Position numbers and translations under genes: made by a program. A model generated the notes under the pieces. It was given only the letters and a program-made list of their open reading frames with translations. It did not search any database and had not been told where the DNA came from. A stretch of 64,000 nucleotides of DNA from Fidelibacterota bacterium (GTDB lineage Bacteria; Fidelibacterota; Marinisomatia; Marinisomatales; UBA1611), in NCBI GenBank assembly GCA_028338895.1, contig JAOLAV010000001.1, positions 9,315 to 73,314 of the forward strand. The letters run 5' to 3'. Positions 32,796 to 61,239 of this stretch are shown here, one piece after another (within the stretch, counting starts at the first letter, position 1; each line of letters starts with the position of its first letter).

Positions 32796-35700
32796 TTAAG
32801 CTGAATGGCGGTTACTGTTTAGACGTTTTACCCATTGTTGAAGACTTGCCATCTTTTCAATCATTATGCTACATACTCCGAATGATTCTTTCACAATACC
32901 TCGAATAATAAATAATTTTTCCCATTGAAGAAGATCTCCAAATTCTTTAAAAGCTTTAGGAAATAAAACACATTCATAAATATCTGTCTCATCTTCTAGT
33001 GTTAAAAATTGCATAGGTTCAGATGTACGAGTTATGGACTCTTTATGGGTAATACACAAACCGATTAAGTAAATTGATTTACCACAATAATTTGAAATAT
33101 CTTTAGCATAAATAATCCGATTACTGAGTATTCCTCTATACCGAGATACTGGATGGATAGAAATGAGATAACCAAAAGATTCTATTTCTAGTCTAAAAGT
33201 ATCTTCCTCATCAATTTTACGATTTAGAGGATTTCCTAACAGGGTATTTCGATTTTTATTTTGCAGGTAATACCCTGCAACTTTATATGCAATCTGTTGG
33301 TGACTTAAGTTGAATCCTATTTTGTCAAAGCAGCTTGCATTTGTAAGTGCCATCGCATCTGCCAGATCAAGGTCTACACGGATTAGAAAGTCATCAAGAG
33401 AATCAAAAAAACCAGCTTTTCGTTCATCCAAAATTAGATAAATTGATTTTTTACGAAGATTTTTAATACTCATAAAACCCATTATAATTTTATCATCATA
33501 ACCTCGCCATTCATAGTAGCTCTTGTTGATATCTGGTTTAATAATTATAATCCCAAACCTCCTTGCTTCACTCATGTATGCATAAGAAGAATAGAAACCA
33601 CCTCTATTCGATATTACCGCGGCTAAAAATTCTGCGGTAAAATGGGCTTTAAGATATGCACAAGTAAATGATAACATGGCATAAGAAGCCGAATGAGATT
33701 TACAAAAGGAATAACCCACGAAAGAAGAAATCATATCCCAAACATCATGAATTACTTCATTAGAATACCCCCTATCTATACATAGGCTGGTAAACTTTTT
33801 TTTCCACAATTTTATATGGCTCTGCATAGAATCACGACTCATTGTTTTACGTAATATTTCTGCTTCACTATATTTTAAACCAGCCATTTTCATAACCGCT
33901 ATCGAGACCTGTTCCTCATAAACCATAATACCATAACTTTCATTTAAAAAGTCTAAATCAGGGTGGATCAAATCCCACTTTTGCCCATGTATTCTAGAAA
34001 GCATTATATTCGTAAACCTATTAGCGGCTGGCCTGATAATAGAGGAGTAAATAACTAAGTGATTAAAATCAACAACTCCTGATTTTGATAATAACTGCCT
34101 AGTTGCAGGACTTTCTATATAAAAGACACCCATTGTTCTTCCAGACTTCATTATTTCATTTGTCTTTTTATCTTCTATCGGTTGAATATAATGATAGTTA
34201 AAATACTTTTTATCTATTTCATCCCCTTGATAATTCAAATTAATATGTTTAATCGTGTCACGAACAACAGATAAACTACGATTACCTAAAATATCAATTT
34301 TTAACAAACCTGAATCTTCGACTTGATCTTTTTCCCATTCTACAATCTGTACACCTTTAGGTGCCTTAAGAACTGGAACATATTTTTCAATCTCATCAGG
34401 TACAATAACTACCCCTCCAGAATGAACTGACGAGTGCCTAAAAGATCCAATTATTTTTTCACTTTCTTTTAAAACCTTAATCAAAGTCTCATCTAAATCT
34501 AGATTAGAAAACTTTGTGTCTGTTCGAATCCAAGAGACTAGATTTTTGCGTGATGTATACCAGCCTATTCTCTTGGTTATCTGATTAATCTCTTCATTAG
34601 AGAGTCCATAAACCTTACCTACTTCTCTAATAGCGGACCTTGGCTTTAAGAATACTTGATTTGAGACCATTGCGGTTCGCTCATCACCATATTTTTTAAA
34701 TATATAATTCAGAATATTATCTCGTTCATCCCATGGGAAATCAATATCAATATCAGGCATATCTTTCCTCTCTGTATGAATAAATCTTTGAAAATTAAGT
34801 GTATACTTAATCGGGTCAACCTGTGTAATAAATAAGCAGTAACTAACAATGGATGCAGCAGCAGAACCTCGACCAATAGTAGCATTGGTCTGCTTAACAA
34901 TATCCTCTACAATTAAGAAATAAGGAGAAAATCCTTTTTCATTAATGAGTTTCAATTCATATTCAATTCTATAACGAATAAGATCATTTAAATTAGTATA
35001 CCGCTTTTTAGCACCAGAATACACTTTATCTTTAAGCTTTGTATTAGACTTATGAGTATTCTTTAAAGAAAGTCCTGGAAAAATTGTATTTATAAATGAC
35101 CAGTTTGTTTTGCAACGGTTAGCTAAATAGTAGCTGTTATTTAAAAAACTTAAGCTGTTTGGAAAGAGCTCTATCATCTGTTCTTCATTTCTAAAGCAGT
35201 GTTGTAATGTTTTATACTGAGAAGAGTCTAAATTATCTTTTGTCGAATTATAATGAATAGCACGAAGTGTTAGATGAGCTTCATGATCACTTTTTGATTT
35301 AAAATAAACATCTCCTGTTACAACAACTTCTAATCTTAATTTTCTAGCTAAATTATGTATGATATTTTCTTGAAATCCAGGTCTTAGCTCTACAAATAAA
35401 TGACTACTTGGAATAATCTTTTTTAATAGACTTAATGTTTTTTCGTTATATGATAAAAAAAATAGACCTATTGATCTATCTCTTATAAGCTCAATAATTG
35501 GTTTATCCAAATTTCTGTGCACATCAGATATAATTCGGCAAAGATTTTCATACCCAGATTGATTTTCTACCAAAACAATTAGTTCATCCATCTTTGTGAT
35601 TAGGTTTACTCCAGCGATCGGACCTAGACCTCTATTACGCGCATGTTGTACAAATCGAATAAAACCCCATAAACCGTTCGTATCAGTTAATGCAATTTTG

Positions 35701-35798
35701 TCCATAGATGATTTTGCTGTCAATTCTACTAAATCATGTAAAGATAAGAGGCCACTCATTTTAGAATAGACTGAATGAGTATTTAAATGAACAAACAT
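32796..35798 (-). CDS. dnaE2: error-prone DNA polymerase III alpha-like (DnaE2)
   Basis: PHP N-terminus MFVHLNTHSVYS. About 1000 aa. It lies immediately downstream of imuB with a 1-nt overlap (TAATG). Confidence 0.85.
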   Translation of the reverse strand: MFVHLNTHSVYSKMSGLLSLHDLVELTAKSSMDKIALTDTNGLWGFIRFVQHARNRGLGPIAGVNLITKMDELIVLVENQSGYENLCRIISDVHRNLDKPIIELIRDRSIGLFFLSYNEKTLSLLKKIIPSSHLFVELRPGFQENIIHNLARKLRLEVVVTGDVYFKSKSDHEAHLTLRAIHYNSTKDNLDSSQYKTLQHCFRNEEQMIELFPNSLSFLNNSYYLANRCKTNWSFINTIFPGLSLKNTHKSNTKLKDKVYSGAKKRYTNLNDLIRYRIEYELKLINEKGFSPYFLIVEDIVKQTNATIGRGSAAASIVSYCLFITQVDPIKYTLNFQRFIHTERKDMPDIDIDFPWDERDNILNYIFKKYGDERTAMVSNQVFLKPRSAIREVGKVYGLSNEEINQITKRIGWYTSRKNLVSWIRTDTKFSNLDLDETLIKVLKESEKIIGSFRHSSVHSGGVVIVPDEIEKYVPVLKAPKGVQIVEWEKDQVEDSGLLKIDILGNRSLSVVRDTIKHINLNYQGDEIDKKYFNYHYIQPIEDKKTNEIMKSGRTMGVFYIESPATRQLLSKSGVVDFNHLVIYSSIIRPAANRFTNIMLSRIHGQKWDLIHPDLDFLNESYGIMVYEEQVSIAVMKMAGLKYSEAEILRKTMSRDSMQSHIKLWKKKFTSLCIDRGYSNEVIHDVWDMISSFVGYSFCKSHSASYAMLSFTCAYLKAHFTAEFLAAVISNRGGFYSSYAYMSEARRFGIIIIKPDINKSYYEWRGYDDKIIMGFMSIKNLRKKSIYLILDERKAGFFDSLDDFLIRVDLDLADAMALTNASCFDKIGFNLSHQQIAYKVAGYYLQNKNRNTLLGNPLNRKIDEEDTFRLEIESFGYLISIHPVSRYRGILSNRIIYAKDISNYCGKSIYLIGLCITHKESITRTSEPMQFLTLEDETDIYECVLFPKAFKEFGDLLQWEKLFIIRGIVKESFGVCSIMIEKMASLQQWVKRLNSNRHSA

Positions 35799-36970
35799 TA
35801 TGACTTCCCTAATGCCTGAAAAATATTAGCTGTTTGTAAAGCATTAACTCCGTATCGCTGCCGAATATTTTCAATGGCCTTAGATAACTCCATATTTTTA
35901 TCATCTATTGTTCTAAATATTGTTACTTGGTCAGCAAAAGGAAAAAAATGGCTAGCAACTATTAAAATTGTTCTAATTCGGTTTCTCCTCTTATTTGCTT
36001 GTTCAAATAATAATTGACAGACTTCTATCACTGAAAAATCATCAAGGCTTTCAACTTTCCCATATTGCAACATTTGATAACCATCAGCATAATGTATTTC
36101 AACTTTTATTTTTTTTGCTAACTGCCATCTTTTTCTTAATTCAAATGCAATCTGCTCAGCAAGATCTTTAACCAATGCATCTAAAATATTTTTAGAGTTT
36201 GTATCTTCGAATAAAATTGTTTGCCTTAAAATAATATCTTTTTCTTCTAATGGTTTAACTGGTCGAGAATCTTTGCCGTGTGATTCTTTTGCAAGTTGAA
36301 CAGAATGGACACCAAATAATATTTTGAATTCATCTGGGCTTTTTATTATCGATTGAAGACTCTTGATTTTATTAATTAATAAAAATTTAATTATTTTATT
36401 TACTGATTTCTCTGATGCGGTAGGCAAAATATCTGGGTCTAAATATGAAAAAAATTGAGATTCTAACCCTTCTTTAACTTGATAAATTTTATCTGAAGTA
36501 ACGGTTGTGATTGTTTGACTTACCAATTTATTAGATCCTATCCCGACTTGTCCGATAACTCTTGTTTTATTATTTATAGATTCAAGAATAGATAAACCAT
36601 TATTTTGAACATCTCCTCTTAAAAGTCGCATACCATTCATATCTAAGAAGAACTCTCCTATTCCTCTTGGCTCAACAATAGGTGTATGCATAGATACAGT
36701 GTTGTAGATATATTTATTTAATTTTGTATAAAGTGATTTATTATAGGGCAACAAGCGAACTCCATGATTTACTTTTCGTATTGTTGAGACTTTCATACCA
36801 CAAGAGAACCCTTCTTCTTCAGCTTCCGGAGATAGAGCAATAATTATACTATTAGAACTATTTGATGATATGATGGCAACAGGACGTTTTTTTAAAGTAG
36901 GATCTATAATCTGCTCTGCCTGAAGCTCTAGACCCTTAAGACGTATGTGAAAAACGTCTCTTACATTCAT
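35798..36970 (-). CDS. imuB: ImuB-like inactive Y-family polymerase
   Basis: Y-family-like fold with the catalytic acidic residues replaced (FHIRLKGLELQ instead of DxD; GIGEFFLDMNG). Gene order is lexA-imuB-dnaE2. Confidence 0.7.
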   Translation of the reverse strand: MNVRDVFHIRLKGLELQAEQIIDPTLKKRPVAIISSNSSNSIIIALSPEAEEEGFSCGMKVSTIRKVNHGVRLLPYNKSLYTKLNKYIYNTVSMHTPIVEPRGIGEFFLDMNGMRLLRGDVQNNGLSILESINNKTRVIGQVGIGSNKLVSQTITTVTSDKIYQVKEGLESQFFSYLDPDILPTASEKSVNKIIKFLLINKIKSLQSIIKSPDEFKILFGVHSVQLAKESHGKDSRPVKPLEEKDIILRQTILFEDTNSKNILDALVKDLAEQIAFELRKRWQLAKKIKVEIHYADGYQMLQYGKVESLDDFSVIEVCQLLFEQANKRRNRIRTILIVASHFFPFADQVTIFRTIDDKNMELSKAIENIRQRYGVNALQTANIFQALGKS

Positions 36971-36980
36971 AGAGTTTTAC

Positions 36981-37601
36981 CTAATTCAAATAATTTCTAA
37001 AAGAATAGAGCAGAACACCGTTGATACGGAAATCATCTGTTGGATCAATTTTTATAATTGGAAAATTTGGGTTTCGAGCATGAAGCTCTACACCATTACT
37101 ACTAGGCATGTAACATTTTAAAGTTGCTTCTCCATTAATAATTGCAACAACAATCTGACCAGATCGAGCAATGCTTGTTTTTTTAGCAACAATAAAATCG
37201 CCATCATGAATCTGTTCTTCTATCATCGAATCACCCTTTACTTGTAGCACATAATGATCCGGATGTAATAAAGATGACGGGACGTCCACCATTTCAGGAT
37301 TTTCTAAAGCTTCAATTGGCTCACCAGCAGCAATTAAGCCCAACAACGGTAAACGAGCCATTGTACTTGTGATGTGCTCATTTTGATTTAAAATAAGCGC
37401 TCGTTTCCCGTTGGGGCCTTTTATACGCGATAGATGACCTTTATCTTCCAAGGTCTTTACATACCAATTAACTGTCCCTAATGATCCAAAGCCTAGACTG
37501 GTCATAATCTCTTCATAAGATGGAGATTGACCATTCATGAGTGTAAACCTTTGAATAAAGTTTAAAAACTTTTCTAATTTAGGAGACAGCATCTTGTTCA
37601 T
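36981..37601 (-). CDS. lexA: LexA repressor
   Basis: wHTH (SPSYEEIMTSLGFGSLGTVNWYVKTLEDKGHL). Cleavage region LIAAGEP. Ser-Lys dyad context VKGDSM ... ATLKCY. ATG 37601 is preferred over the track's TTG at 37640. Confidence 0.85.
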   Translation of the reverse strand: MNKMLSPKLEKFLNFIQRFTLMNGQSPSYEEIMTSLGFGSLGTVNWYVKTLEDKGHLSRIKGPNGKRALILNQNEHITSTMARLPLLGLIAAGEPIEALENPEMVDVPSSLLHPDHYVLQVKGDSMIEEQIHDGDFIVAKKTSIARSGQIVVAIINGEATLKCYMPSSNGVELHARNPNFPIIKIDPTDDFRINGVLLYSFRNYLN

Positions 37602-37753
37602 GAGGTAATAGACAAGTTTGTAATTCCCTTTCCATTCCAAACAATAGATTGGGATGATAATTTATTTGCATGACTATTTAAACGTGAAACAGCACGTATT
37701 ACTTCAAAGGATAACATCTGTTTATTTTTTTTCTTAATAAAATATTTCATCAT
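37598..37753 (-). CDS. 51-aa ORF translationally coupled to lexA (ATGA overlap)
   Basis: MMKYFIKKKNKQMLSFEVIRAVSRLNSHANKLSSQSIVWNGKGITNLSITS. Its stop TGA shares TG with the lexA ATG. It sits between the candidate operator and lexA. Confidence 0.3.
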   Translation of the reverse strand: MMKYFIKKKNKQMLSFEVIRAVSRLNSHANKLSSQSIVWNGKGITNLSITS

Positions 37754-37772
37754 AAAAATCTCTCTTTGTTTG

Positions 37773-37794
37773 TTACTCGTAAGTTACTCGTAAG
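37773..37794 (-). promoter_or_regulatory. tandem 11-bp repeat TTACTCGTAAG x2 (two TTAC-N2-GTAA palindromes), candidate LexA operator
   Basis: Perfect direct repeat 19 nt upstream of the small ORF ATG. A TAnnTTTG-like box (TACTTTTG, 37802..37809, minus strand) lies just upstream. Confidence 0.45.
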
Positions 37795-37831
37795 TATATT
37801 ACAAAAGTATTTATTCATCTCCAAATAAAAA

Positions 37832-37848
37832 ACCCTCAATAATGGGGG
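37832..37848. terminator. bidirectional terminator hairpin
   Basis: A-run, CCCTCA-ATAA-TGGGGG, T-run. It separates the PAS-MenA gene from the lexA operon. Confidence 0.6.
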
Positions 37849-37886
37849 TTTTTGAAAAAAGAGAAAGGTTAGAAAACTATTTTATA

Positions 37887-39164
37887 TTAAGCAGAGGCAA
37901 CCCAAAGCCCTATAAATAATAATAAACCCGTAACATTATGCATAATAATAGTCCCCCAATTAGCCGGTTCTAAAAGTCTACTATTATAGTGCTTATATAA
38001 AGTTTGAATAGCTCTAAAACCAAAGTAAGCAGCCAGTAGAGAAATCAAAGATTCAGATGGTAACCTCTCACTCAAGACAAGAGCAATAATACTAAGGAAA
38101 GCTCCAACAACTAAGGAAACATAACCGACTCTCGCTTTTTCGGGTCCAAATACCACAATCAATGTCTTCTTTCCTGTTTGTTTATCACTATCATGATCAG
38201 GGAATTCATTCACATAAACAACAGCAGCAATCAATAGACCAATTGGAATACCGACTAAAAAAGCTTCTGGTAAAAGTTTACCCGTCTGTACTAATGCACT
38301 TCCAGCTACCATTAAAGGACCAAAATTTAAACCTATTAATAGTTCGCCTAATCCTTTTCTAGAAGAAAATTTAAAAGGAGGTGCTGTATAGAATAAACCT
38401 GAAAAGAATCCAACTAGTCCTAACCAAAGTACTGGAAGTCCAGCTTTTTGAATTAAAGGAATACCGACAAGAGCACTAAGCCCAAAAGTTACAATGGCTA
38501 AAGTTAGCATACCTTTTGCTGAGATGAGACCCATTTGAATCCCTCGCCCACCACCATTAAGACCAACATTACTATAATTGTAATTTATTTCATCAGTACC
38601 ACTCACGTGATCGTAGTAGTCATTTGATGTATTTGTACCAATTTGTAGTAATGCACCTCCAAGTGCTGTCAGTGCAAGCCAACCCCACTGAATAGGATAC
38701 CCTGCAAACTTTGCGATAGCTGCTCCAACAAAAATAGGAACAAAAGTTGCGGATAAGAATGGTAATCTCATTATCACAACCCATGTGAATATTTTAGTCA
38801 TTATATCAATTTTGGGACGAACCTCATCAGCTGTTTTATCTTTTAGAGGACTTGTAACACCACAATAGCCTATGTGTTCTCCATCTTTTGATTTAGTTGG
38901 CGTTATTTTAATACGAGATGGTAGCTCACTACCATCCTTATGTAAGAAGACAGTATTGCCTTCCCAGACTCCTTTGTCTACAGCTTCAGCAAGCCAACCA
39001 ACGACATGACCAAGAACGACTTGCCCATCACTAAAATCACTGACTCTCATTTTACCAACAACTTCCTCTTCAGAATAACCAAAAAGGTCAACAGCCCCTT
39101 CACTAAATGTTTCGACTTTACCATCTACATCACATGTTATGACACTTTTCAAATGCTCACTCAT
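37887..39164 (-). CDS. PAS domain fused to MenA-like UbiA-family prenyltransferase
   Basis: N-terminal ~110 aa are PAS-like (DGKVETFSEGAVDLFGYSEEEVVGK...FLHKDGSELP). Then a polytopic domain with NDYYDHVSGTD and NEFPDHDSDKQTGKKTL motifs. Confidence 0.7.
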   Translation of the reverse strand: MSEHLKSVITCDVDGKVETFSEGAVDLFGYSEEEVVGKMRVSDFSDGQVVLGHVVGWLAEAVDKGVWEGNTVFLHKDGSELPSRIKITPTKSKDGEHIGYCGVTSPLKDKTADEVRPKIDIMTKIFTWVVIMRLPFLSATFVPIFVGAAIAKFAGYPIQWGWLALTALGGALLQIGTNTSNDYYDHVSGTDEINYNYSNVGLNGGGRGIQMGLISAKGMLTLAIVTFGLSALVGIPLIQKAGLPVLWLGLVGFFSGLFYTAPPFKFSSRKGLGELLIGLNFGPLMVAGSALVQTGKLLPEAFLVGIPIGLLIAAVVYVNEFPDHDSDKQTGKKTLIVVFGPEKARVGYVSLVVGAFLSIIALVLSERLPSESLISLLAAYFGFRAIQTLYKHYNSRLLEPANWGTIIMHNVTGLLLFIGLWVASA

Positions 39165-39239
39165 TATTCTAAGTAACCTTTCTTAGTTATTAATTATATC
39201 TAAAATTACATAAGTATTTAAAAGCATGAAAAACTAAAA

Positions 39240-40013
39240 TCACACTGGATAAAAAATCGGTCGGCTTGGTGCAGCATCTAGATTCCAATTAGGAATTTGA
39301 ATTTGTAAAAAGCCAAAACTGTCCTCTACCGAATTAGGTATGTATAATAATTCAGATATAGTTTTTCCTTTTTTAAAAAATTCATGATGGTTTCCAAGTA
39401 TTCCACCATCATCGGCTTTATCAATTGAAGGTAAATCTACCAGTAGATGCTGGACAGAGAGTTTGCTTAAGTATTTAATAGCATCTGAAGTAAAAAATGG
39501 AGCTATCTCTAGGTCGTAATTCCGGTTTTTTTTGAGGCTTGTATTAGGCAAAGTCCGAATAATTAAAGAGGATATCTGGTCTTTAATTTTACTCACTAAC
39601 ATTTTCTTTGATATTACAAGATCTGAAGCGATTTTAGCATGATATGAATCTGAAGTATTAGATATATGATCAGGCTTTAAAGAAATTAATTGTGAAGGAA
39701 TAAAACTTCTAGGACAAACATCAACTATTTTAGTTTCACTTTCACTCACATGGCTTATACATTCAGTATGAGTTCCTGTACAATGAATATCAATAGAAGC
39801 AATACCAACATTACAACTTCCACCCTGTTTTATATCACCTTTAAAGCCTCCAATTTGAACAGGATTCAGACTCGATTGTTTAGCCTTAAAAAAAATAGGA
39901 TTTTTATTATCAAAGTTATTTTTTAATGAAAGGTCAATCCCCTGGTCAGTTTTTATAAAATATGACCTGCCTTTATACTCGACCTTAGTCGTTAGCTCTG
40001 TTTCAGATTCCAT
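39240..40013 (-). CDS. putative cyclase / arylformamidase-family protein
   Basis: HCTGTHTECISH resembles HxGTHxDxPxH. DLPSID resembles the family's DxxSxD motif. Confidence 0.5.
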   Translation of the reverse strand: MESETELTTKVEYKGRSYFIKTDQGIDLSLKNNFDNKNPIFFKAKQSSLNPVQIGGFKGDIKQGGSCNVGIASIDIHCTGTHTECISHVSESETKIVDVCPRSFIPSQLISLKPDHISNTSDSYHAKIASDLVISKKMLVSKIKDQISSLIIRTLPNTSLKKNRNYDLEIAPFFTSDAIKYLSKLSVQHLLVDLPSIDKADDGGILGNHHEFFKKGKTISELLYIPNSVEDSFGFLQIQIPNWNLDAAPSRPIFYPV

Positions 40014-40227
40014 TTATTAGTTTAATAATCTCTCCATCGTTGGGAAAACGTTTTAGTGATTTTTTTGAAAAAATTAAATTCTCATCAAGCATGACTTCAA
40101 AAACACCTCCACTGCTAGATATCAAATTAATATCAATATTACTAAATTCGTTTTTTAATTCATGTTCCAAACTGGAAGCATTAGGAAGGTAATTTCACAT
40201 GCTACAATATTCGATAGAGACTTTCAT
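40003..40227 (-). CDS. SelW/Rdx-family selenoprotein (C-x-x-U), 74 aa with in-frame TGA at 40195..40197
   Basis: Manual translation MKVSIEYCSM-U-NYLPNASSLEHELKNEF...SSSGGVFEVMLDENLIFSKKSLKRFPNDGEIIKLI matches the Rdx family pattern (IxYC..[CU]. ... GG.FEV...g.LI.SK....FP). The ATG overlaps the upstream stop (TAATG). Confidence 0.75.
40165..40177 (-). other. candidate bacterial SECIS apical hairpin for the SelW-like gene
   Basis: UUCCA-GUU-UGGAA, with the loop G 23 nt after the UGA. Possible lower stem UAAU/AUUA. Confidence 0.4.
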
Positions 40228-40727
40228 TAATCCTCCATTTTTTGTTCATTAAAAAATTTTAAAATATCTTCAGGGTGACTATGAATATTTACTTCATCAA
40301 AAATATGTACTAAAATTCCATTTTCGTCAATTAAAAATGTTTTTCTAGAAGGGAAAAAATAATATTTATTTACTTTATATGCAGAGCCAGTTGTTTTTTT
40401 GCTATCCGATAAAAAGTTGAAAGGTAGGTTATATTTTTCTTTAAACTTTTTCAGACTACTTTTTGAGTCAAAGCTGATGCCTAATATTGAGATATCAAAA
40501 TCACTAAAATTTTGGAATTCATCACGGAACCCACAGGCCTGTTTAATTCATCCAGGAGTCTCAGCTTTAGGGAAAAAATAAATAACAAGTTTTTCACCTC
40601 TGTAATCTTTTAGATTATGCAGCTTATTATCTTGATCATATAATTTAAATTCAGGCGCATGTTCACCAACTTTTAGAGGTGAGCTAAAAAGTAATGTATT
40701 TAAAAATAAAATCAATAAATTTCTCAT
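40227..40727 (-). CDS. BCP/PrxQ-type peroxiredoxin with selenocysteine at the peroxidatic position (U60), in-frame TGA at 40548..40550
   Basis: The track ORF stops at FFPKAETPG-TGA. The same frame continues IKQACGFRDEF...ILGISFDS...FNFLSDS...RKTFLIDENGILVHIFD to TAA at 40227 and is collinear with E. coli Bcp (FYPKAMTPGCTVQACGLRD...). Start placed at ATG 40727. Confidence 0.8.
40523..40541 (-). other. candidate SECIS hairpin for the Sec-peroxiredoxin
   Basis: CAGGCC-UGUG-GG(UU)CC(G)UG begins 7 nt after the UGA. Possible lower stem AAUU/AAUU. The sequence also encodes the conserved QACGFR, so the structure is unproven. Confidence 0.3.
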
Positions 40728-40792
40728 AAGATTAACTAATTCTAGAACATAAACTAAACTACTATAATCTTTAATAGTATTAAATTTAATTT

Positions 40793-41773
40793 GTGAAAAA
40801 TATAGATATAAAATCAATAGGACGAAGAGTCATAAAAATTGAAGCAGATGCAGTTTCAATGATAGAAAATCGTATTGATGATAAATTTGAATTAGCTGTA
40901 GAGTCAATACTCAATTGCCCTGGTCGCTTGATCATATCTGGAATGGGTAAATCAGGCTTAATAGCTCAAAAGATAGCATCAACTATGGCATCAACAGGTA
41001 CACCCGCTTATTTTGTACACCCAAGTGAGGCAATCCATGGTGATCTCGGTATGATTACAAATCAAGATATCATGATAATATTAAGTAATAGTGGCGAGAC
41101 TTCAGAATTAATTCAAATTTTACCAGCATTAAGAAAAAAAAACGTGACTATTATTGGATTGATTGGAGCAAAAGAATCAACCTTGTCTATCCAGGCCGAT
41201 CTATTCCTAGATACATCTGTTGAAAAGGAAGCCTGCACACTTGACCTCGCACCAACTGCAAGTACTACCGCAACATTAGCCATGGGAGATGCTCTGGCTA
41301 TTTCACTTCTAGAATTACGTGGGTTTAATAAAGAAAACTTTGCTGAGCTTCATCCCGGCGGAATACTTGGTAAGCGTCTTTTATTAACGATAGATCATCT
41401 TATTCACAAAGAGCAGAGTCTACCCTTTGTCACGATCTCAACAACAATTAAGAAAGCATTACTTACTATTTCAGAGAAAGGCTTAGGAGTAACAGGTGTT
41501 TTAGATGAAAAAAATCAGATGATCGGCATTATAACTGATGGTGATATTCGCCGCGGGATTGAAGAAAATTATAAAGATTTTTTTGATCAACCTGCCAAAA
41601 TAATTATGTCAAAAAATCCAAAATCCGTGACATCTGATACTCTCGCAATTTCAGCTTTAGAGCTTATGGAAAAACATTCGATCACTAGCCTATTTGTATA
41701 TTCCAACACGGAATTAAAAAAACCAGATGGAATTATACATATTCACGATATCTTAAAATTAGGTATCCGATAA
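40793..41773 (+). CDS. kpsF: arabinose-5-phosphate isomerase (SIS + tandem CBS)
   Basis: GMGKSG, SNSGET, the C-terminal CBS pair and a GTG start. Confidence 0.85.
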   Translation: MKNIDIKSIGRRVIKIEADAVSMIENRIDDKFELAVESILNCPGRLIISGMGKSGLIAQKIASTMASTGTPAYFVHPSEAIHGDLGMITNQDIMIILSNSGETSELIQILPALRKKNVTIIGLIGAKESTLSIQADLFLDTSVEKEACTLDLAPTASTTATLAMGDALAISLLELRGFNKENFAELHPGGILGKRLLLTIDHLIHKEQSLPFVTISTTIKKALLTISEKGLGVTGVLDEKNQMIGIITDGDIRRGIEENYKDFFDQPAKIIMSKNPKSVTSDTLAISALELMEKHSITSLFVYSNTELKKPDGIIHIHDILKLGIR

Positions 41774-41790
41774 TTATATATATAAATATT

Positions 41791-42204
41791 GTGATTAAGA
41801 TCAGTATAACTTTACTTTTTATTTTTTTGCAAGCTTGCGATACTAAACCTCCCGTTAATATTTATAAATCAGATGAATACAATAGGTTCACAGAACAAGA
41901 TAGAATAATTGGAGAATCAATTTGGGCAACTACATGTTTTCGCTGCCATATGTACGGCTCAAATGGAGGAAAAACGCTGTCAGAAAAAGATTACTGGAAT
42001 GAAGCAGCAGGTAAAGGATTCCAAGCACTATATAAAAGTGTTTGGGAAGGTAAAGCTGGAGATGAAGGGGTTATGCCACCCAAAGGTCTCTGCAACCCTT
42101 GTTCTGAAGAAGAAATTAAAAAATCAGTATTATATTTATTTCAGCTTGCTAAAAAAATTCAAACATCCGATTCTTTAAAACAGGTTTCTAAATTGAATCT
42201 TTAA
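41791..42204 (+). CDS. class I c-type cytochrome lipoprotein
   Basis: Lipobox LQAC. CFRCH heme motif. GVMPPKG Met ligand region. Confidence 0.7.
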   Translation: MIKISITLLFIFLQACDTKPPVNIYKSDEYNRFTEQDRIIGESIWATTCFRCHMYGSNGGKTLSEKDYWNEAAGKGFQALYKSVWEGKAGDEGVMPPKGLCNPCSEEEIKKSVLYLFQLAKKIQTSDSLKQVSKLNL

Positions 42205-44530
42205 AAAGTGCTGATCCTTCAACAGCATCTGCTAAATTTCGAGCAATGCTTAAAAAACTAGAAACGTTCATCTCTTTTAAGTAAACCGCTCCATGAACTG
42301 CCCTTAAATGAGGGCTTTCATTTCGGTACCAATAATCACGACCTAACATTAACTGGAGATCTCGATGTTGATTCACCCAAATCTTCTGTGAAAGTTCTGA
42401 AAATGGCCCATCAAAATCATAACTTGGAAAGGAAGCTTCTTTTTGACTTAAATAACAATTCATGAAAGTTGAGTTCATAATTGATAGTGAGTTTAATGTA
42501 ACTGGAACAATTATATCTGCTTCTGCTAAATCAAACTTATACCAAACATTTCTATAGCCCCAAATTCTCAAATTTGATAAATCTTTTATCTTACTCCATT
42601 GTCTTACAGCTTCAGCAATTGTTTGTAAAACTTTATAATGTGTATCAGGACCACTTCCTTCAGGATCCAATGCTAATGATATAACAGTCGGGTTTATCTT
42701 TTTCAATTGTTCTAATACTGGAGCAACATCTCTTAAATCTTCTGGTTGCTCTGTGAATATTTCCCCTTGGTAAAAACCTAAACGCAGGTGATTAACATCT
42801 TGAACTCGGACACCATAATTTGCCCAAACTAGCTCTTCTTCATACTCACGAACCATGCCTTTTAATTTTTGAATTTTAGGAGAATTTTTTTGTCCATCAT
42901 AGCTATTATCTAATTCCTCTAAAATTGTTTTCAATCTTTTTTCTAATTGTTTTTTGCTCTCGACGCCATAAACTTCTACTAATGCCCTAACAACTCTGTG
43001 TGAAAGCCCTCTATTTTGGCCTTGAATATCATTATTTGCAATTTTATCTAGATAATGGTAGACATCTTTATCCCATCTATATTTATATCCATCTGTGAAA
43101 AAGTTATCATAATTTATCATTTGAATCTTATCACTATGAAATAAGTCCAATGTCTTTTTAATTATTTTTCGTATGAAGGAATTTGTAACACTTGTAAATC
43201 CCGAAGTCATATTTGTAAAAATATGCTTATTCGTTGGCTCTCGAATTAAATGAATAATGTGTGGCATCATACCCAACATGATATCATCATGATGAGGACC
43301 AGTATGATAATAGACCTGATCTTTTTCTTGTTTAATCCCTTTTTTTACTTTGGCATCAATACTATCAATTATTTCAGAGACAGTATTCTCCGATAGGTTC
43401 GGAATATTTTTACAAATGGAGTCTTCTCTTAATTCATTTAAACTGATCTTTTTACCAAAAATATTCTTTTCTTTTGCCAAATGGAGTAGTGCCCTTTGAC
43501 TCTTTTTCAAATTCCAATCTTTATTCTCCCAATAAACTTTTTTATAGTTCGTCAACTTTTTTGTTGCACCAACTGTGAGATAGAATCTACTATTATTTAA
43601 TTTCTGAAGGCATGTTGCTGGAAATTTAATCGTTGGGGCTGATTCTAAAGACTTTTGAATTATAGCTGATTTTGCTTCTCCAGCAGCAATTATTATTGCG
43701 GTTGCATTTTCGTTATATGTTATTGTTCCTAAGCCAATAGTAATAACCAACCTATTTTTACTAATTTCAATACCGCCTAAGTCTGTTGCTGCGGCGGCTT
43801 GAGTCTCAAAATTTGTCTCCATTAAGCGCGTTGTGGAATTGTGATCAGATCCCCTGACATTAAAAGCAATATGTCCATCGGGCCCAATTCCTCCAAGAAA
43901 AAAACCAATCCCGCCTAAGAATCTAATCTTCTCTTCATACTCGTTACACCATTGATCAATTAAATAGATTGACTCTTGTTGCTTTTCTTCATGTAATGAG
44001 ATGGGATTTCTATATCGTAGACTTAAATCAATTTTACTTTCAGGAAAAACCTGTTCCCAAGGCTCTTTATTATATAGATCAATTTCTCGAGAATTTATTA
44101 ATAGTGATTTTTCTAATGAGAGCTTAAAACCATCAATATAAAAGTGCTTAACATAATCATAAAAAGAATTTTTTTGAATTGGATCTAAGGGATAAAATTC
44201 ATCTATTTGGACAAACTTTAAATTCGAAAGATTTGGTTTCTGATTCGTTTTGAAATTATATTTTTCTAAAAGTGAAGAGACTTTTGGACTTTTCCAATTT
44301 TTAAGTAGATAATGAGTCCATTTGATAAAGTATTCAGGAGTTTTTCCTGTAGGTAGACTGATTACTCCATTAGGATTTTGGATCACCCACTCCAAGAATC
44401 TCAATGATGTTAATAATCCCAGATCGGGAAAATTATCAACAGTAAGGTACGGTAATTTTACGTTTTGATCGTTAAAATTACTTTTTGGAAAGAATGCTTC
44501 TTCAAGAGGAGACCAAGAGTTAAGATTCAT
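42188..44530 (-). CDS. glucosamine-6-phosphate deaminase-like domain fused to LmbE/PIG-L-like deacetylase domain
   Basis: GIGPDGHIAFN (NagB/Pgl fold) in the N-half. HTGPHHDDIMLG (LmbE-type metal motif) in the C-half. Confidence 0.7.
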   Translation of the reverse strand: MNLNSWSPLEEAFFPKSNFNDQNVKLPYLTVDNFPDLGLLTSLRFLEWVIQNPNGVISLPTGKTPEYFIKWTHYLLKNWKSPKVSSLLEKYNFKTNQKPNLSNLKFVQIDEFYPLDPIQKNSFYDYVKHFYIDGFKLSLEKSLLINSREIDLYNKEPWEQVFPESKIDLSLRYRNPISLHEEKQQESIYLIDQWCNEYEEKIRFLGGIGFFLGGIGPDGHIAFNVRGSDHNSTTRLMETNFETQAAAATDLGGIEISKNRLVITIGLGTITYNENATAIIIAAGEAKSAIIQKSLESAPTIKFPATCLQKLNNSRFYLTVGATKKLTNYKKVYWENKDWNLKKSQRALLHLAKEKNIFGKKISLNELREDSICKNIPNLSENTVSEIIDSIDAKVKKGIKQEKDQVYYHTGPHHDDIMLGMMPHIIHLIREPTNKHIFTNMTSGFTSVTNSFIRKIIKKTLDLFHSDKIQMINYDNFFTDGYKYRWDKDVYHYLDKIANNDIQGQNRGLSHRVVRALVEVYGVESKKQLEKRLKTILEELDNSYDGQKNSPKIQKLKGMVREYEEELVWANYGVRVQDVNHLRLGFYQGEIFTEQPEDLRDVAPVLEQLKKINPTVISLALDPEGSGPDTHYKVLQTIAEAVRQWSKIKDLSNLRIWGYRNVWYKFDLAEADIIVPVTLNSLSIMNSTFMNCYLSQKEASFPSYDFDGPFSELSQKIWVNQHRDLQLMLGRDYWYRNESPHLRAVHGAVYLKEMNVSSFLSIARNLADAVEGSALFKDSI

Positions 44531-44531
44531 A

Positions 44532-45908
44532 TTATTTGAGGTAGGCTATTTTTTTTATTATTTGAGTTTTATTGCCAGAGACTTTAATAAAAAAGACACC
44601 GGAACTAATTGTTTGTGAAATATCATTTTTATTCCAATCCAGGTAGATTTTACCTATTGGTAATTCACGATTCAATAATTGGCCAATGTACTGCCCAGTT
44701 ATTGATATAATACTTACTTTAATATTTTCTGGTGATTTAATATCTAACTCTATTGTACAATTTGAATTGAAAGGATTTGGATAAGATTTCAAGGAAAAAG
44801 ACTTAGGATTTATACTTTTTTTTTCGTCAACCAATGATAAATAATTTTGATTTATAGATTCAATCAACTTTTGTTCTCCTTGAACTAAATCATAGCTAAG
44901 AGCCCAAATCATAACTCCCCCTAGGCTTCTATCATGTGCAAACTCACATTTATACTTTATTGATTCTTCATCATCAAAGGTTATAATCTTTGATTGCTCG
45001 TCATTTCTAAGATAAGGACATCGTGCTACACTATCCCATTCATAGGTCCATCCGTTGTCAATTAGATTTATTATTTCAGGATAAAATTTGTCTACTACAT
45101 CACCACTAAATGACATATTAATATCTGAAGCATTATATTTTTTGCCCCAAAATGGTAACCCAAGATTGACTTGATTCGCTGGAATACCTCTAGTATAAAC
45201 TAGATAATTTATTCCTGTTTCCACTGATCCGTCTGGGTCTCCAACTGGAGATGAATAAAGAGGGGAATTATGTCCAGCATGACTAGACCAAGAGCCATGA
45301 ATATCGTAGGTCATAGCATTAAAAAAATCAATATAAAATCTTAAAAATGAGAAATCATACCATTGTCCCGACCAATTTGAAACCGGTACAGCCATTGTAA
45401 TTAATAAATCCGGATCATGCGCATTAAAAGTTGAATCCATTTCAGAAATCAGAAAATTTAAATTTTGACGATCATCATTCGATGTCGGGTGCTCCCAATC
45501 CATATCAACGCCATCATATCCATAGGTATCCATTACATCTAATAAATTATTTATAAATGTTGATCGTAAATCAGGGGATGCCGCTACAACTCTAAAACCG
45601 ACATCATTCCCCCAACCACCAAGAGAAAGTAAGATTTTGGCACCATTCGTATGCACGATTTGACTTATAATAGGATTAAACATATTACTATATGACATTA
45701 TGTTACCACTCTGATCCGGCCATGCAAAAGCGTGATTAACATGAGTAACAACACTATAATCTATATTTGAGATAGATAGATTTCCTGAAACCCAATCCGG
45801 AAGATAACCAACAACACGTTGGGAAAGTAATATCTGAAAACAAAAAACAAAAACTATTAGTCGAGGCTTAAGATCTAAAAGAGGTAATCTTTTTATTTTA
45901 TATTTCAT
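44532..45908 (-). CDS. GH18 chitinase-like glycosidase with T9SS CTD
   Basis: DGVDMDWEHP (DxxDxDxE). C-terminal YPNPFNSNCTIEL...KIAYLK. Confidence 0.8.
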   Translation of the reverse strand: MKYKIKRLPLLDLKPRLIVFVFCFQILLSQRVVGYLPDWVSGNLSISNIDYSVVTHVNHAFAWPDQSGNIMSYSNMFNPIISQIVHTNGAKILLSLGGWGNDVGFRVVAASPDLRSTFINNLLDVMDTYGYDGVDMDWEHPTSNDDRQNLNFLISEMDSTFNAHDPDLLITMAVPVSNWSGQWYDFSFLRFYIDFFNAMTYDIHGSWSSHAGHNSPLYSSPVGDPDGSVETGINYLVYTRGIPANQVNLGLPFWGKKYNASDINMSFSGDVVDKFYPEIINLIDNGWTYEWDSVARCPYLRNDEQSKIITFDDEESIKYKCEFAHDRSLGGVMIWALSYDLVQGEQKLIESINQNYLSLVDEKKSINPKSFSLKSYPNPFNSNCTIELDIKSPENIKVSIISITGQYIGQLLNRELPIGKIYLDWNKNDISQTISSGVFFIKVSGNKTQIIKKIAYLK

Positions 45909-46013: not shown

Positions 46014-47450
46014 ATGGTAAAAAATCGAATTACTCATTTTTTTTCTAAAAGTTTCAAGCTCTATCCGATTCTTATATATTGCATATTCGCTTTTTCTTGT
46101 TCCTCAACACTTAATTACTCAATTAAGAAAAAACGGAGATATTTTCAAAAAAACATAGCCTTAATTCTTGAAGAAGCTAATCTAAATGCAACAATTGGAA
46201 TTAAAATTGTTTCATTAGAAAATAGTAAAACTCTCTATGAGCTGAATAGTAAAAGACTATTAATACCAGCAAGTAATATGAAACTTTTGACTTTCGCCTC
46301 TGCTTTGGAATCACTCGGACCAGAATATTTTTTCAAAACAATAATTGGCAAAGATAAAGAAAATATTGTTTTAATCGGAGGCGGGGACCCTACTCTTACA
46401 AGTTATAACCTTGACTCTTTAGCTAGAGTCATTTCTATTGACAAAACAAATATTGATACTCTTTTTATCAATACTTCTATATTGGATACTTTAGATTATG
46501 GGATGGGTTGGATGTGGGATGAAGGGTCTGATGAATTTTCTGCTCCAATAAGTGCGATTACGGTAGATAATAACTGTATTACTTTTGAATACTCTCCATC
46601 TGAAATGGGAGAACCCGCTCAGATTAACTTCTCCCCTTATTCAAACCTAATTTCCATAGAGAATCAATCTATTACTGTTAATGATACATTAGACTATGAT
46701 CCGTTTAGAATTGATCGAGACTGGGTGAATCAAACTAATAAGTTCATAATAAGCGGTGAAGTTTTAAGAGGGGCTATACCTGATACCTTAAAAAAAAATA
46801 TTTATAACCCCAGAAATTATAATGCAGAGTTGTTTGAACATTTTCTATCCTCGCATGGGGTTAAAACCAATCATATTAAATTTAGTAATGTTGAAAAAAA
46901 AATTGATACATTGATAGTGCATGAGTCTAAACCATTCTGGGCTGTATCAAAAAAAATGATGTTTGAAAGTAACAATCAAATTGCCGAATTATTATTAAGA
47001 AAGATTGGTTATAAAGCATTTGGAATTGGTTCTTCACAATCTGGCAGTAAAGCTATAAAATCATTCCTTTTTAATAAAGTAAATATTGATACTAACTTTC
47101 TACGGATTGCAGATGGATCAGGCTTATCTCGATATAATTTATTAAGTGCAGATCAAATAGTTAATTTGTTAGTTTATATGAATGAAAATCATTTTACTGA
47201 ATATTTCAAAAATAAGTTACCAAATGGTGGCTCAAAAAATAGTGGCCTAGAAGATCGTTTGGTCAATACGGGAGATAACGTTATAGCTAAAACAGGTTCT
47301 TTGTCTGGTGTGTCGACTTTATCAGGCTATATCAACTCTGAAAAACATGGACCTTTAGCCTTTTCTATACTTATAAATGGTTTTACTGGATCGCTAGAAC
47401 CTCTTCGGGAATTCCAAAATCAACTGTGCAGGTGGCTTGTAAAAGGATGA
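46014..47450 (+). CDS. dacB: D-alanyl-D-alanine carboxypeptidase/endopeptidase (PBP4, S13)
   Basis: SxxK (ASNMK), SNN and KTGS boxes. Confidence 0.85.
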   Translation: MVKNRITHFFSKSFKLYPILIYCIFAFSCSSTLNYSIKKKRRYFQKNIALILEEANLNATIGIKIVSLENSKTLYELNSKRLLIPASNMKLLTFASALESLGPEYFFKTIIGKDKENIVLIGGGDPTLTSYNLDSLARVISIDKTNIDTLFINTSILDTLDYGMGWMWDEGSDEFSAPISAITVDNNCITFEYSPSEMGEPAQINFSPYSNLISIENQSITVNDTLDYDPFRIDRDWVNQTNKFIISGEVLRGAIPDTLKKNIYNPRNYNAELFEHFLSSHGVKTNHIKFSNVEKKIDTLIVHESKPFWAVSKKMMFESNNQIAELLLRKIGYKAFGIGSSQSGSKAIKSFLFNKVNIDTNFLRIADGSGLSRYNLLSADQIVNLLVYMNENHFTEYFKNKLPNGGSKNSGLEDRLVNTGDNVIAKTGSLSGVSTLSGYINSEKHGPLAFSILINGFTGSLEPLREFQNQLCRWLVKG

Positions 47451-48565
47451 AAAAAGACAAGAAGCTATTAAGTTGCTTTATTTTATTAAAAATATTTTTT
47501 TTATTTAGCTGTAATTCAAGTGTTCAAATTGAAAAAGATTTCAATGGTCGTTATTCCGCTATAGCTAATGACTTTATCAAAGATAAAACGCTAGAAATAA
47601 ACGAAGTCTTCTTAAACTATAAAAAGAAAAATTGGGTTCTCGAAGGTAAGACAAGCAATAAAAAAGTCTACACAGAAGTAAAATCTTATGCAGAATCCCG
47701 GTCTTATTTCTTTGAAGTTAATTTATTACCCGACACTCTACTAAATGATAGCATATATGGTTTAGTAAATGTGAGCGTTACTCCATTACGCCAAGAACCA
47801 AAGCATTCATCCCAAATGGTTGACCAAGTAATCATGGGAAACTACGTCAGATTACAGGAGCAAAAAGGAGATTGGTTTTTATGTCAATCTGAGTATGACT
47901 ATGTTGGTTGGATAAACAAAAGTGCTATTGTTCGCTGCGACGAGTTAACAGTGAAAAAATGGCTTAAAAATTCAAATTATATGATCCAAAAATCACATAG
48001 CACTATTTATTCAGAGCCAGATAAATCAAGTCTGCCAATCAGTGATATAATTTTAAATAATGTCGTTTGGGGTACAAAAACTATTAATAAATGGACAAAA
48101 GTTATTCTACCTGACAATAGGAAAGGATTTATTTTAACAGAAGATTTAATTTTATCGAATCAAATTAATCATCACCCAGCTGGGATTAAAAAGAGCCTCG
48201 CATATAAGGCAAAGCAACTAATTGGAACTCCATATATCTGGGGTGGAAACTCTTCAAAAGGGAGTGACTGTTCGGGTTTCACCCAAACAGTTTTCAAAGC
48301 AGTCGGATTATCCCTGCCTAGAGATGCTCGGCAACAAGCAGTCCTCGGGAAAAAAATTGATATTAATAATGCTCTTTCTGGAGATTTATTATTTTTTGGA
48401 GATGGTGAAAAAGTTACTCATGTAGGGATTAGTCTTGGCGATATGAATTTTATCCATCAAGGTGGAAAAGTCGATATTCATTCACTTGATTCTAACTCAA
48501 TTCTTTACAATGATTACAGAGCTAAGTCATTTATGTTTTTAAAAAGAATATTAGATGAGGGTTAA
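47447..48565 (+). CDS. SH3 + NlpC/P60 cell-wall peptidase lipoprotein
   Basis: Lipobox LFSC. YIWGGNSSKGSDCSGFTQ catalytic Cys and THVGI His. The start at 47447 overlaps the dacB stop (ATGA). Confidence 0.8.
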   Translation: MKKDKKLLSCFILLKIFFLFSCNSSVQIEKDFNGRYSAIANDFIKDKTLEINEVFLNYKKKNWVLEGKTSNKKVYTEVKSYAESRSYFFEVNLLPDTLLNDSIYGLVNVSVTPLRQEPKHSSQMVDQVIMGNYVRLQEQKGDWFLCQSEYDYVGWINKSAIVRCDELTVKKWLKNSNYMIQKSHSTIYSEPDKSSLPISDIILNNVVWGTKTINKWTKVILPDNRKGFILTEDLILSNQINHHPAGIKKSLAYKAKQLIGTPYIWGGNSSKGSDCSGFTQTVFKAVGLSLPRDARQQAVLGKKIDINNALSGDLLFFGDGEKVTHVGISLGDMNFIHQGGKVDIHSLDSNSILYNDYRAKSFMFLKRILDEG

Positions 48566-49401
48566 TTTTCAGACGATTTATTTAATTTATAAAACATTAA
48601 GCCATCAAATCTATAATTATCCTCATCTTTAAGATAACTCATTAAATCAACAGCTACCGTTTTATTATATTCTGATGAAGCGTGAAAAAATGTTCGTTTA
48701 TCTACTAAAAACCCTTCGTGCGCAATCACAAGACCTAACTTAAAGTAGCTTTTTTTTACAAATGCGATACCACATACTTCTGGTAATTTATTTAAAAGTT
48801 GTCTATCTAATTTTTCGATTGAGATATATTTTATTTCTTCTTTTGATGTCCAGTTTAAATTCAGAAAAGGTTGACCATTCTTTTTTTTATTTAATTCAAT
48901 CCTCACAGTCTCAAGATAATCATCATTTGCTATAGATGATGTGATATCAGGAGTTTGGGGATTGTTTAATAATCTATCTGAAGTAAAATGCCAGCGAGAT
49001 TCATAAGTGGCACTACTTTTGCCATCTTTATTTTTTTTATAATGTATATTTCGCATTACTTTTTTCGCTTCAAGATAACTAGAGCTTTCGGCAAAAGCCA
49101 TCGTTGTTAAAACATGGACAGTACAGTCTGAAGAGTCATTACGAATAATGGGGTCTTTATCTTGCCCACTTTCTTCACCAAGGCAATATAGGCCATAAGG
49201 CGTATTCAACCTCCATATGTTCAAAGCTTTTAGTCTGTTTAAATAATTAGGGTATCTTGATAGAAATTGAGGCAGAAATGTTTCAAATTCATCTTCTGAG
49301 AGCGTCCAGGGTTTTGGTAGTGTTTCAACCCAACTATATGAAGATGCAAACCCATTACATGAAAAAAAAAATAAAATAAAGAGTGAAAAAATTTTATTCA
49401 T
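48562..49401 (-). CDS. DUF1460 (amidase-like) lipoprotein
   Basis: Signal/lipobox FFFSC. ...DCTVHVLTTMAFA motif. Start placed at 49401, 2 nt after the upstream stop codon. Confidence 0.55.
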   Translation of the reverse strand: MNKIFSLFILFFFSCNGFASSYSWVETLPKPWTLSEDEFETFLPQFLSRYPNYLNRLKALNIWRLNTPYGLYCLGEESGQDKDPIIRNDSSDCTVHVLTTMAFAESSSYLEAKKVMRNIHYKKNKDGKSSATYESRWHFTSDRLLNNPQTPDITSSIANDDYLETVRIELNKKKNGQPFLNLNWTSKEEIKYISIEKLDRQLLNKLPEVCGIAFVKKSYFKLGLVIAHEGFLVDKRTFFHASSEYNKTVAVDLMSYLKDEDNYRFDGLMFYKLNKSSEN

Positions 49402-50677: not shown

Positions 50678-50711
50678 TCGTGATTAAATTTATTCAATTT
50701 ATCTTTTATGT

Positions 50712-52689: not shown

Positions 52690-52692
52690 AAG

Positions 52693-61238: not shown

Positions 61239-61239
61239 C

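Follow-up and report, generated by a model that had tools for sequence, protein, structure and literature searches.

A predicted selenocysteine-containing peroxiredoxin of the Bcp/PrxQ type and its SelW-like neighbour in a marine bacterium

The window analysed here, the whole 64,000-nucleotide stretch of contig JAOLAV010000001.1 that is listed under Fidelibacterota bacterium, carries on one strand a row of genes that overlap or abut each other and encode a peroxiredoxin, a small SelW-like protein and a cyclase-family protein (Table 1), with a gene for a PAS-UbiA prenyltransferase downstream of them. The peroxiredoxin gene is interrupted by an in-frame stop codon: the minus-strand open reading frame (ORF) MRNLLILFLNTLLFSSPLKVGEHAPEFKLYDQDNKLHNLKDYRGEKLVIYFFPKAETPG, ending in ...VIYFFPKAETPG, meets a TGA at codon 60, past which the same frame stays open for another 106 codons, IKQACGFRDEFQNF...ILKFFNEQKMED (also given as IKQACGFRDEFQNF...HPEDILKFFNEQKMED), until it ends at a TAA. 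We conclude that this gene very probably encodes an atypical 2-Cys peroxiredoxin of the Bcp/PrxQ type that uses selenocysteine (Sec) as its peroxidatic residue. A first-pass annotation of the window had predicted a Sec enzyme hidden from ORF calling at this place, pointing to the TGA and the 106 open codons behind it, to homology of the read-through product with Bcp/PrxQ, to the position of the TGA at the peroxidatic Cys of a TPG-C motif and to a resolving Cys five residues further on. All four observations agree with the sequence and with the comparisons given below, and the prediction itself is supported by conservation of the UGA, Cys-containing relatives, a coding downstream frame, a hairpin visible in codon bias, a standard genetic code and the UGA-containing SelW-like neighbour, a gene that the annotation had overlooked.

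The read-through product was analysed with Cys put at the TGA position. Its Pfam match to AhpC-TSA (PF00578) runs unbroken over the TGA, with residues 20-141 of the 166-residue product aligned to profile positions 1-123/124 (E=9.6e-35), and Redoxin matches as well (E=1.4e-24); the AhpC/TSA domain is complete only when the UGA is read through. Of the proteins with solved structures, Sulfolobus Bcp1 matches best in sequence (3drn, E=2.7e-29, residues 18-165), and the TPGC of 5enu aligns with TPG-TGA of the window peroxiredoxin. A resolving Cys five residues past the peroxidatic residue marks the atypical 2-Cys, alpha2 type and is common to Bcp/PrxQ proteins of the Cys type; in the window protein Cys65 stands five residues past U60, and it is kept by all of the best 120 of 243 database homologues. 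The homologue alignments show no variation at Cys65 or at Arg128, the latter of which the 59-residue truncated product would lack. Thr57 is invariant too, in an alignment whose other 16 sequences were chosen by their TPx motif, and its invariance is therefore not independent evidence. An AlphaFold (AF2) model of the read-through product, built from a database entry (P0001) that equals the window sequence with W at the site, reaches a mean predicted local distance difference test (pLDDT) score of 87, and within the domain it exceeds 90 both before and after the site. The peroxidatic site is modelled at the start of a helix, and the top structural matches of the model are Bcp/PrxQ proteins (template modelling (TM) scores 0.87-0.92).

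Compared with the Cys-type members of the family, such as E. coli Bcp, Sulfolobus solfataricus Bcp1 (3drn) and Xanthomonas PrxQ, the window enzyme shares the fold and the PxxxTxxC...R active site but has UGA/Sec in place of the peroxidatic Cys and an extra hydrophobic segment at its N-terminus. Given that its best NCBIfam matches stay below the cutoffs (125.6 against 140 for the E. coli-type Bcp model NF006960, and 108.5 against 260 for the PrxQ model NF053650), the protein belongs to the family at the level of Pfam and is not an equivalog of either E. coli-type Bcp or PrxQ. PrxU of Eubacterium acidaminophilum is an experimentally grounded precedent for a Sec peroxiredoxin. The two proteins have Sec at the peroxidatic position in common but belong to different peroxiredoxin subfamilies, and with a score of 39.7 bits, where the cutoff of NF040737 is 270, the window protein is not an orthologue of PrxU. 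In the model, the additional 17 residues at the N-terminus form a helix that lies outside the domain, and solved Bcp domains align only from residue 18. This segment is possibly a signal peptide or a membrane anchor; the leader of one Cys-type relative contains a lipobox-like FISC. Such a leader suggests that the protein is exported or anchored in a membrane, and for a Bcp this would be unusual.

Could the TGA be a sequencing or assembly error for TGT or TGC? Apart from the one-base distance between TGA and TGY, nothing speaks for this explanation, and the DNA around the TGA is base-for-base identical in at least 11 independent metagenome assemblies (TARA, Logan and others in ENA), which shows that the codon is not a sequencing error. 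With the same codon present in at least 98 distinct relatives, we consider the chance of a misread base to be negligible. The relatives come from a scan of Joint Genome Institute (JGI) metagenome contigs for FP..A.TP[G/P]-TGN-x-K-[Q/E]-A-C-G, in which the third base of the critical codon was left open, pooled with the loci that had already been fetched. Among the matches listed, at least 109 unique contexts were obtained, of which at least 98 have TGA at codon 60, at least 8 TGC, at least 3 TGT and none TGG. A scan of genome contigs based on the protein alignment had W back-translated as TGG, and for this reason it gave nearly only distant Cys homologues (at most 46% identity, from many phyla); none of these showed synteny with the window.

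That the TGA might be a true stop, with the 106 codons behind it decaying as the remnant of a truncated gene, is what one would read from standard gene calling, which yields a 59-residue product followed by a gap. The first-pass annotation had likewise asked whether homologues consistently end at this point. They do not: in 89 of 96 sequences the frame after the TGA runs on for 94-112 codons, and TGA and downstream frame are retained together in the at least 98 unique contexts, down to about 50% identity. Differences from the window sequence fall on codon positions 1, 2 and 3 at 0.34, 0.25 and 0.54, the pattern of a coding sequence with substitutions concentrated at third positions. No frameshifts or extra stops were seen in the downstream part of the orthologues, Arg128 and Cys65 are invariant, and the adjacent SelW-like gene has the same feature of an in-frame UGA, all of which makes a pseudogene very improbable. 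A conserved UGA, Cys counterparts and a coding-type downstream frame are, at the level of sequence, the classical signature of a selenoprotein gene.

The protein databases tell a different story at first sight. Among the best 120 clusters of the 243 homologues, which were retrieved from a collection of 5.8 billion proteins, column 60 holds W in 115 cases and Cys in the other 5 (TPPC..., including P0086 and P0090). However, the stored W corresponds to TGA in the DNA of every fetched locus, and the stored protein is not reproduced under translation table 11; the W is therefore an artefact, which likely results from gene calling with a TGA=Trp code on short AT-rich contigs. These W entries, along with the low GC content of the window (about 31%), would be expected if TGA had been reassigned throughout the genome, to Trp as in code 4 or to Gly as in code 25. 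Several observations contradict such a reassignment. Of the 46 window ORFs with 150 or more codons, 8 end in TGA, which indicates a standard genetic code, and on long contigs gene calling under code 11 returns a 59-residue stub. Column 60 is Cys in relatives and, among the matches listed, never TGG. When the window gaps were roughly screened by eye for TAA/TAG-bounded frames with one or two TGAs, no more than two in-frame TGAs came to notice; both lie at known Sec positions, and no other convincing interrupted gene was seen in these gaps. By established peroxiredoxin chemistry, an enzyme with Trp or Gly as its peroxidatic residue would be inactive. We thus give genome-wide reassignment very little credence and retain Sec as the predicted residue at position 60.

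If the UGA is recoded, the RNA behind it might be expected to carry a selenocysteine insertion sequence (SECIS) element, and synonymous codon choice in 89 homologous genes points to one. Numbered from the UGA, Arg8 is encoded by CGN in 89 of 89 genes (AGR and CGA never occur), compared with 27% CGN elsewhere in the same genes; Phe7 is UUC in 79 of 80 (18% elsewhere), Gly6 is GGG in 74% (15% elsewhere) and Cys5 is UGC in 84% (25% in the window). This bias builds a small hairpin, 5'-U-G-Y-G-G[GUU]C-C-G-Y-R-3' (hairpin A), for which 87% of the cells are paired in 78 distinct sequences versus at most 73.5% in slid registers, and RNAalifold recovers the core of its helix. Since the protein sequence fixes one side of each pair, hairpin A has no two-sided covariation in its own register. 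Nine variants have Leu (CUG or UUG) instead of Phe7; in these the register is shifted by one, and the third base of Ala4 complements that of Arg8 in every case (three times each G-C, C-G and A-U). As a general element this shifted register, A', was rejected, given that only 64% of the cells are paired over all sequences; it is valid for the Leu subgroup only. Sequences with GGA and CGG form a third arrangement, GGAUUC[CGGGAU]GAAUCU, at +16 to +33.

For bacterial SECIS elements, bSECISearch expects a distance of about 16-37 nt from the UGA. All hairpin variants described above place a small G-containing loop about 16-27 nt past the UGA, and a small loop with a G is a common feature of bacterial SECIS elements (PMC1088965). 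A stem-loop soon after the UGA with a G in its small apical loop is thus seen at the family level, while the hairpins of the window itself are weak. As judged from codon choice, there is selection at the nucleotide level for a hairpin just 3' of the UGA. The first-pass annotation had drawn the SECIS element elsewhere, as an imperfect hairpin starting 7 nt after the UGA. That structure is present in the minimum-free-energy (MFE) fold of a 60-nt segment, but its folding energy is unremarkable beside shuffled sequences (z=+0.43), and at +7 to +25 just 56% of the cells are paired in the 78 homologues, no better than in slid registers. We discarded it as a conserved element; the actual SECIS-like hairpin is smaller and spans +13 to +25 or +33.

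The second interrupted gene begins within the stop codon of the first, with one nucleotide shared between the peroxiredoxin TAA and the SelW-like ATG (TAATG). Its product, MKVSIEYCSM-TGA-NYLPNASSLEHELKNEF...LINGI, matches Pfam Rdx (PF10262) at E=9.7e-22 and the NCBIfam model NF041051, SelT/SelW/SelH (seleno)protein, at 107.4 bits against a cutoff of 88. It resembles the bacterial SelW-like/Rdx proteins (PF10262; NF041051, TIGR02174) in its length of about 74 residues, in scores above the family cutoffs and in a CxxU motif whose U is encoded by UGA. A mistranslated W stands for this TGA in 84 of 84 full-length database homologues; the remaining matches are fragments from behind the UGA, several of which JGI has named 'selenoprotein W-related', and 28 homologous loci read TGA in the DNA. 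In the homologues a hairpin, GCUUCCA[GUU]UGGAAGC, sits 16 nt after the UGA, with 91% of the cells paired in 29 sequences versus at most 55% in slid registers. Three of its pairs show compensatory double changes (U-A to C-G and C-G to U-A), its covariation score was matched by just 2 of 500 shuffles, and RNAalifold gives the same helix. That two adjacent genes both contain a UGA where Sec is known to occur, with a GUU-loop hairpin behind it in either case, is strong internal evidence of Sec decoding by the organism.

Table 1. Features of the peroxiredoxin locus and of a neighbouring gene row. Positions are those of the window; offsets with a plus sign are counted from the peroxiredoxin UGA.
Feature	Position	Strand	Details or basis
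Bcp/PrxQ-type peroxiredoxin, read-through coding sequence	40227..40727	minus	166 codons including the UGA; ATG 40727-40725; stop TAA 40229-40227
N-terminal 17 residues MRNLLILFLNTLLFSSP, basic then hydrophobic, before the Bcp domain	40677..40727	minus	similar leader in homologues
Predicted selenocysteine U60 (in-frame UGA), peroxidatic residue of P53-K-A-E-T57-P-G-U60	40548..40550	minus	alignment with solved Bcps
Cys65 codon (UGU), resolving Cys at U+5; also within the 5' arm of the hairpin	40533..40535	minus	invariant in homologue alignments
SECIS-like region with two overlapping hairpins, A and B	40515..40535	minus	codon bias and pairing in homologues
Hairpin A, U-G-U-G-G[GUU]C-C-G-U-G	+13 to +25, 40535-40523	minus	87% of cells paired
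Hairpin B, GGGUUC[CGUGAU]GAAUUC	+16 to +33, 40532-40515	minus	70% of cells paired
Arg128 codon, conserved peroxiredoxin active-site Arg, 3' of the UGA	40344..40346	minus	invariant column
Second predicted selenoprotein gene, SelW-like/Rdx	40003..40227	minus	74 codons; ATG 40227-40225; stop TAA 40005-40003
UGA within the SelW-like frame, standing at U in the redox motif C-S-M-U (CxxU)	40195..40197	minus	
SelW-like gene: SECIS-like hairpin, AUG(C)UUCCA[GUU]UGGAACAU	40162..40181	minus	16-35 nt after its UGA
Cyclase-family gene (PF04199, arylformamidase-like), overlaps the SelW-like stop	39240..40013	minus	Pfam
SOS-like row: LexA-like S24 peptidase	36981-37640	minus	Pfam label
SOS-like row: Y-family polymerase/ImuB-like IMS	35798-36970	minus	Pfam label
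SOS-like row: 1000-residue DnaE-type polymerase	32796-35798	minus	Pfam label

A number of observations weigh against the assignment of Sec. Incorporation of selenium at residue 60 is a prediction from sequence. In the peroxiredoxin hairpin, classical two-sided covariation is confined to the small Leu subgroup. The hairpins of the window are weak, with two G-C and three G-U pairs in hairpin A and -4.2 kcal/mol for hairpin B, which is the local MFE structure. Neither folds better than shuffled sequences; single-sequence folding gave z-scores of +0.43, +1.35, -0.22 and -0.17, a test that is uninformative for hairpins this small. No Rfam SECIS model matches at gathering thresholds, with chance matches only at E<=10. 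Finally, searches for selA, selB, selD and tRNA-Sec came up empty in the window, in flanks of about 10 kb on either side and in the fetched loci; the search for tRNA-Sec covered the window, its flanks and 1.06 Mb of related loci, and tblastn with approximate E. coli SelD and SelB queries against the window and all loci gave no matches, though this is a weak test. Because the sequence covered is a tiny part of one genome, the Sec machinery is unverified rather than absent. Three SAR406 single-cell genomes have been listed with SelD (Peng et al.; PMC5029168).

That no Sec machinery was found in the sequence covered would also be compatible with decoding of the UGA by other means, for example by a SelB-dependent Cys tRNA variant or by near-cognate read-through with Trp or Cys, either of which would give a full-length enzyme without selenium. 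Recoding variants of the Sec system have been described in a few bacteria, which counts in favour of this possibility. On the other hand, Cys is directly encodable, as the relatives demonstrate, TGG never appears at codon 60 among the matches listed, and the hairpins of the two genes have the position and the G-containing loop that are expected of bacterial SECIS elements. Moreover, two of the marine families that most frequently contain Sec are interrupted here exactly at their redox-active positions (PMC1088965, PMC2398784). We therefore regard decoding as another amino acid as very unlikely, and Sec remains the predicted residue at both UGA codons.

Sec-containing peroxiredoxins of this kind have been reported from the ocean before. 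In the Sargasso Sea selenoproteome, Peroxiredoxin (Prx; COG1225, TXXU) was represented by 43 genes and was second in abundance only to SelW-like proteins (Zhang et al., 2005; PMC1088965), and 253 Prx selenoproteins (PF00578, TxxU) were counted in the Global Ocean Sampling (GOS) data (Zhang and Gladyshev, 2008; PMC2398784). The latter study also described ten reads with neighbouring Prx and SelW selenoprotein genes, attributed to closely related organisms, and a review from 2026 restates this operon observation and lists Prx with TxxU among the characterised selenoproteins (PMC13188914). Publications thus already cover both the Prx(TxxU) family and the adjacency of Prx and SelW. A read from the GOS supplement, JCVI_READ_1098679 (...FFPKADTPGUIKQACGFRDEY...), is 68% identical to the window peroxiredoxin over 157 residues. 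The window gene shares with these marine proteins the family (COG1225/PF00578), the position of Sec, the marine metagenomic origin and the adjacency to SelW, but it is a distinct orthologue (68% identity), and its full context is visible on a 64-kb contig. The earlier papers had single reads and no organism, whereas the window can be assigned, tentatively, to Fidelibacterota. Descriptions of a third, cyclase-family gene and of alternative hairpin registers were not found in PMC1088965 or PMC2398784.

The order Prx-SelW-cyclase recurs in relatives (loci L102 and L104-L106). Of 68 unique metagenome loci that encode Prx(U) and reach 1.2 kb or more downstream, the SelW-like gene is present in 27, and 22 of these contain the cyclase gene as well; in another clade (P0112), a TonB-dependent receptor is located downstream of the peroxiredoxin instead. 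Going by gene order, Prx-SelW-cyclase is a conserved three-gene module in a marine low-GC bacterium. A scan for promoters and terminators in 37600-41000 gave the same counts as shuffled sequences. A short way downstream of the module, the gene at 37887-39164 (also minus strand) encodes a MenA/UbiA-type prenyltransferase fused to an N-terminal PAS domain, a fusion that looks unusual.

From what is known of bacterial Sec insertion and of the chemistry of atypical 2-Cys Bcp/PrxQ enzymes, a course of events can be proposed. SelB carrying Sec-tRNA(Sec) would bind the small stem-loop 13-33 nt past the UGA through its G-containing loop (GUU or CGNGAU), and UGA-60 would be recoded from stop to Sec. 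The full 166-residue enzyme, with its thioredoxin fold, would then set U60 at the start of helix alpha2, beside Thr57 and Arg128. Activated by these two residues, the selenolate would reduce a hydroperoxide and become a selenenic acid, which Cys65 (U+5) could resolve to an intramolecular selenenylsulfide, and a thioredoxin-like (thioredoxin-fold) reductant would restore the enzyme. Through the TAATG overlap, the peroxiredoxin gene would be coupled translationally to the SelW-like gene.

It is tempting to look for the reductant next door, and we put forward the SelW-like CxxU protein as a hypothetical candidate for reducing the peroxiredoxin. A more far-reaching proposal, which we consider possible but doubtful, is that the Prx(U)-SelW(U)-cyclase string constitutes a dedicated two-selenoprotein module for peroxide reduction in Fidelibacterota (SAR406), in which the SelW-like protein would reduce the selenenylsulfide of the peroxiredoxin. 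The pairing is uncertain because only the peroxiredoxin bears an export- or anchor-like segment at its N-terminus and the SelW-like protein is without one; this mismatch would either refute the pairing or indicate a membrane-associated arrangement. If the proposal held true, a bacterial SelW-like protein would for the first time have a functional partner, the peroxiredoxin.

For the annotation of marine genomes, the consequences are practical. On long contigs the peroxiredoxin is called under code 11 as a stub of 59 residues with an empty gap behind it, and in public protein sets the stored Trp occupies the active site of both proteins. Once the two UGA codons are recognised, a widespread ocean bacterium regains two redox enzymes in its inventory, and the orphan Prx/SelW read pairs of the GOS data are tied, tentatively, to Fidelibacterota/SAR406. 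The value of the locus thus lies in annotation, and knowledge of selenoproteins as such is unchanged. What is added is modest: the SelW-like neighbour, the position and registers of the SECIS-like hairpin, a third gene of the module, a tentative phylum and the mis-storage of Trp in public protein sets.

The organism is probably a marine member of Fidelibacterota (Marinimicrobia/SAR406), a phylum of the Fibrobacteres-Chlorobi-Bacteroidetes (FCB) group, as judged from a handful of labels and not from a tree. The only organism-labelled homologues of the GH18 protein of the window carry the labels [Fidelibacterota bacterium] and [Candidatus Marinimicrobia bacterium], each with 59% identity, and one SelW-like fragment is labelled Marinimicrobia. 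Many large secreted proteins of the window have the ...YPNPFNP...T-x-I-x-[FY]... ending of the C-terminal sorting domain of the type IX secretion system (T9SS), which also speaks for a SAR406-type organism. PF18962 was matched in those at 1725-3890, 4017-5888 and 44532-45908, whereas those at 11318-12976, 13395-14306 and 19655-21640 were assigned to T9SS by the motif alone.

Four further regions deserve brief mention. At 60852-61680 (minus strand), a CitMHS/TrkA_C transporter gene is followed by a small gene with a rhodanese domain and by one for DUF302; rhodanese domains serve sulfur and selenium trafficking in other systems. The three genes at 32796-37640 (minus strand; Table 1) form a row that, by its Pfam labels, resembles an SOS mutagenesis cassette. 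A 780-residue ORF at 42188-44530 (minus strand) matches no Pfam family at E<=0.01, and the public gene calls record no such family for it either; it contains the motif GIGPDGHIAFN, which we take to be typical of enzymes of the glucosamine-6-phosphate deaminase/6-phosphogluconolactonase type. The region 46014-53943 holds a cluster for cell-wall turnover, with Pfam labels for an S13 D-Ala-D-Ala carboxypeptidase, NlpC/P60 with SH3, AmiA-like, NamZ-like, GH3 and SpoIID proteins.

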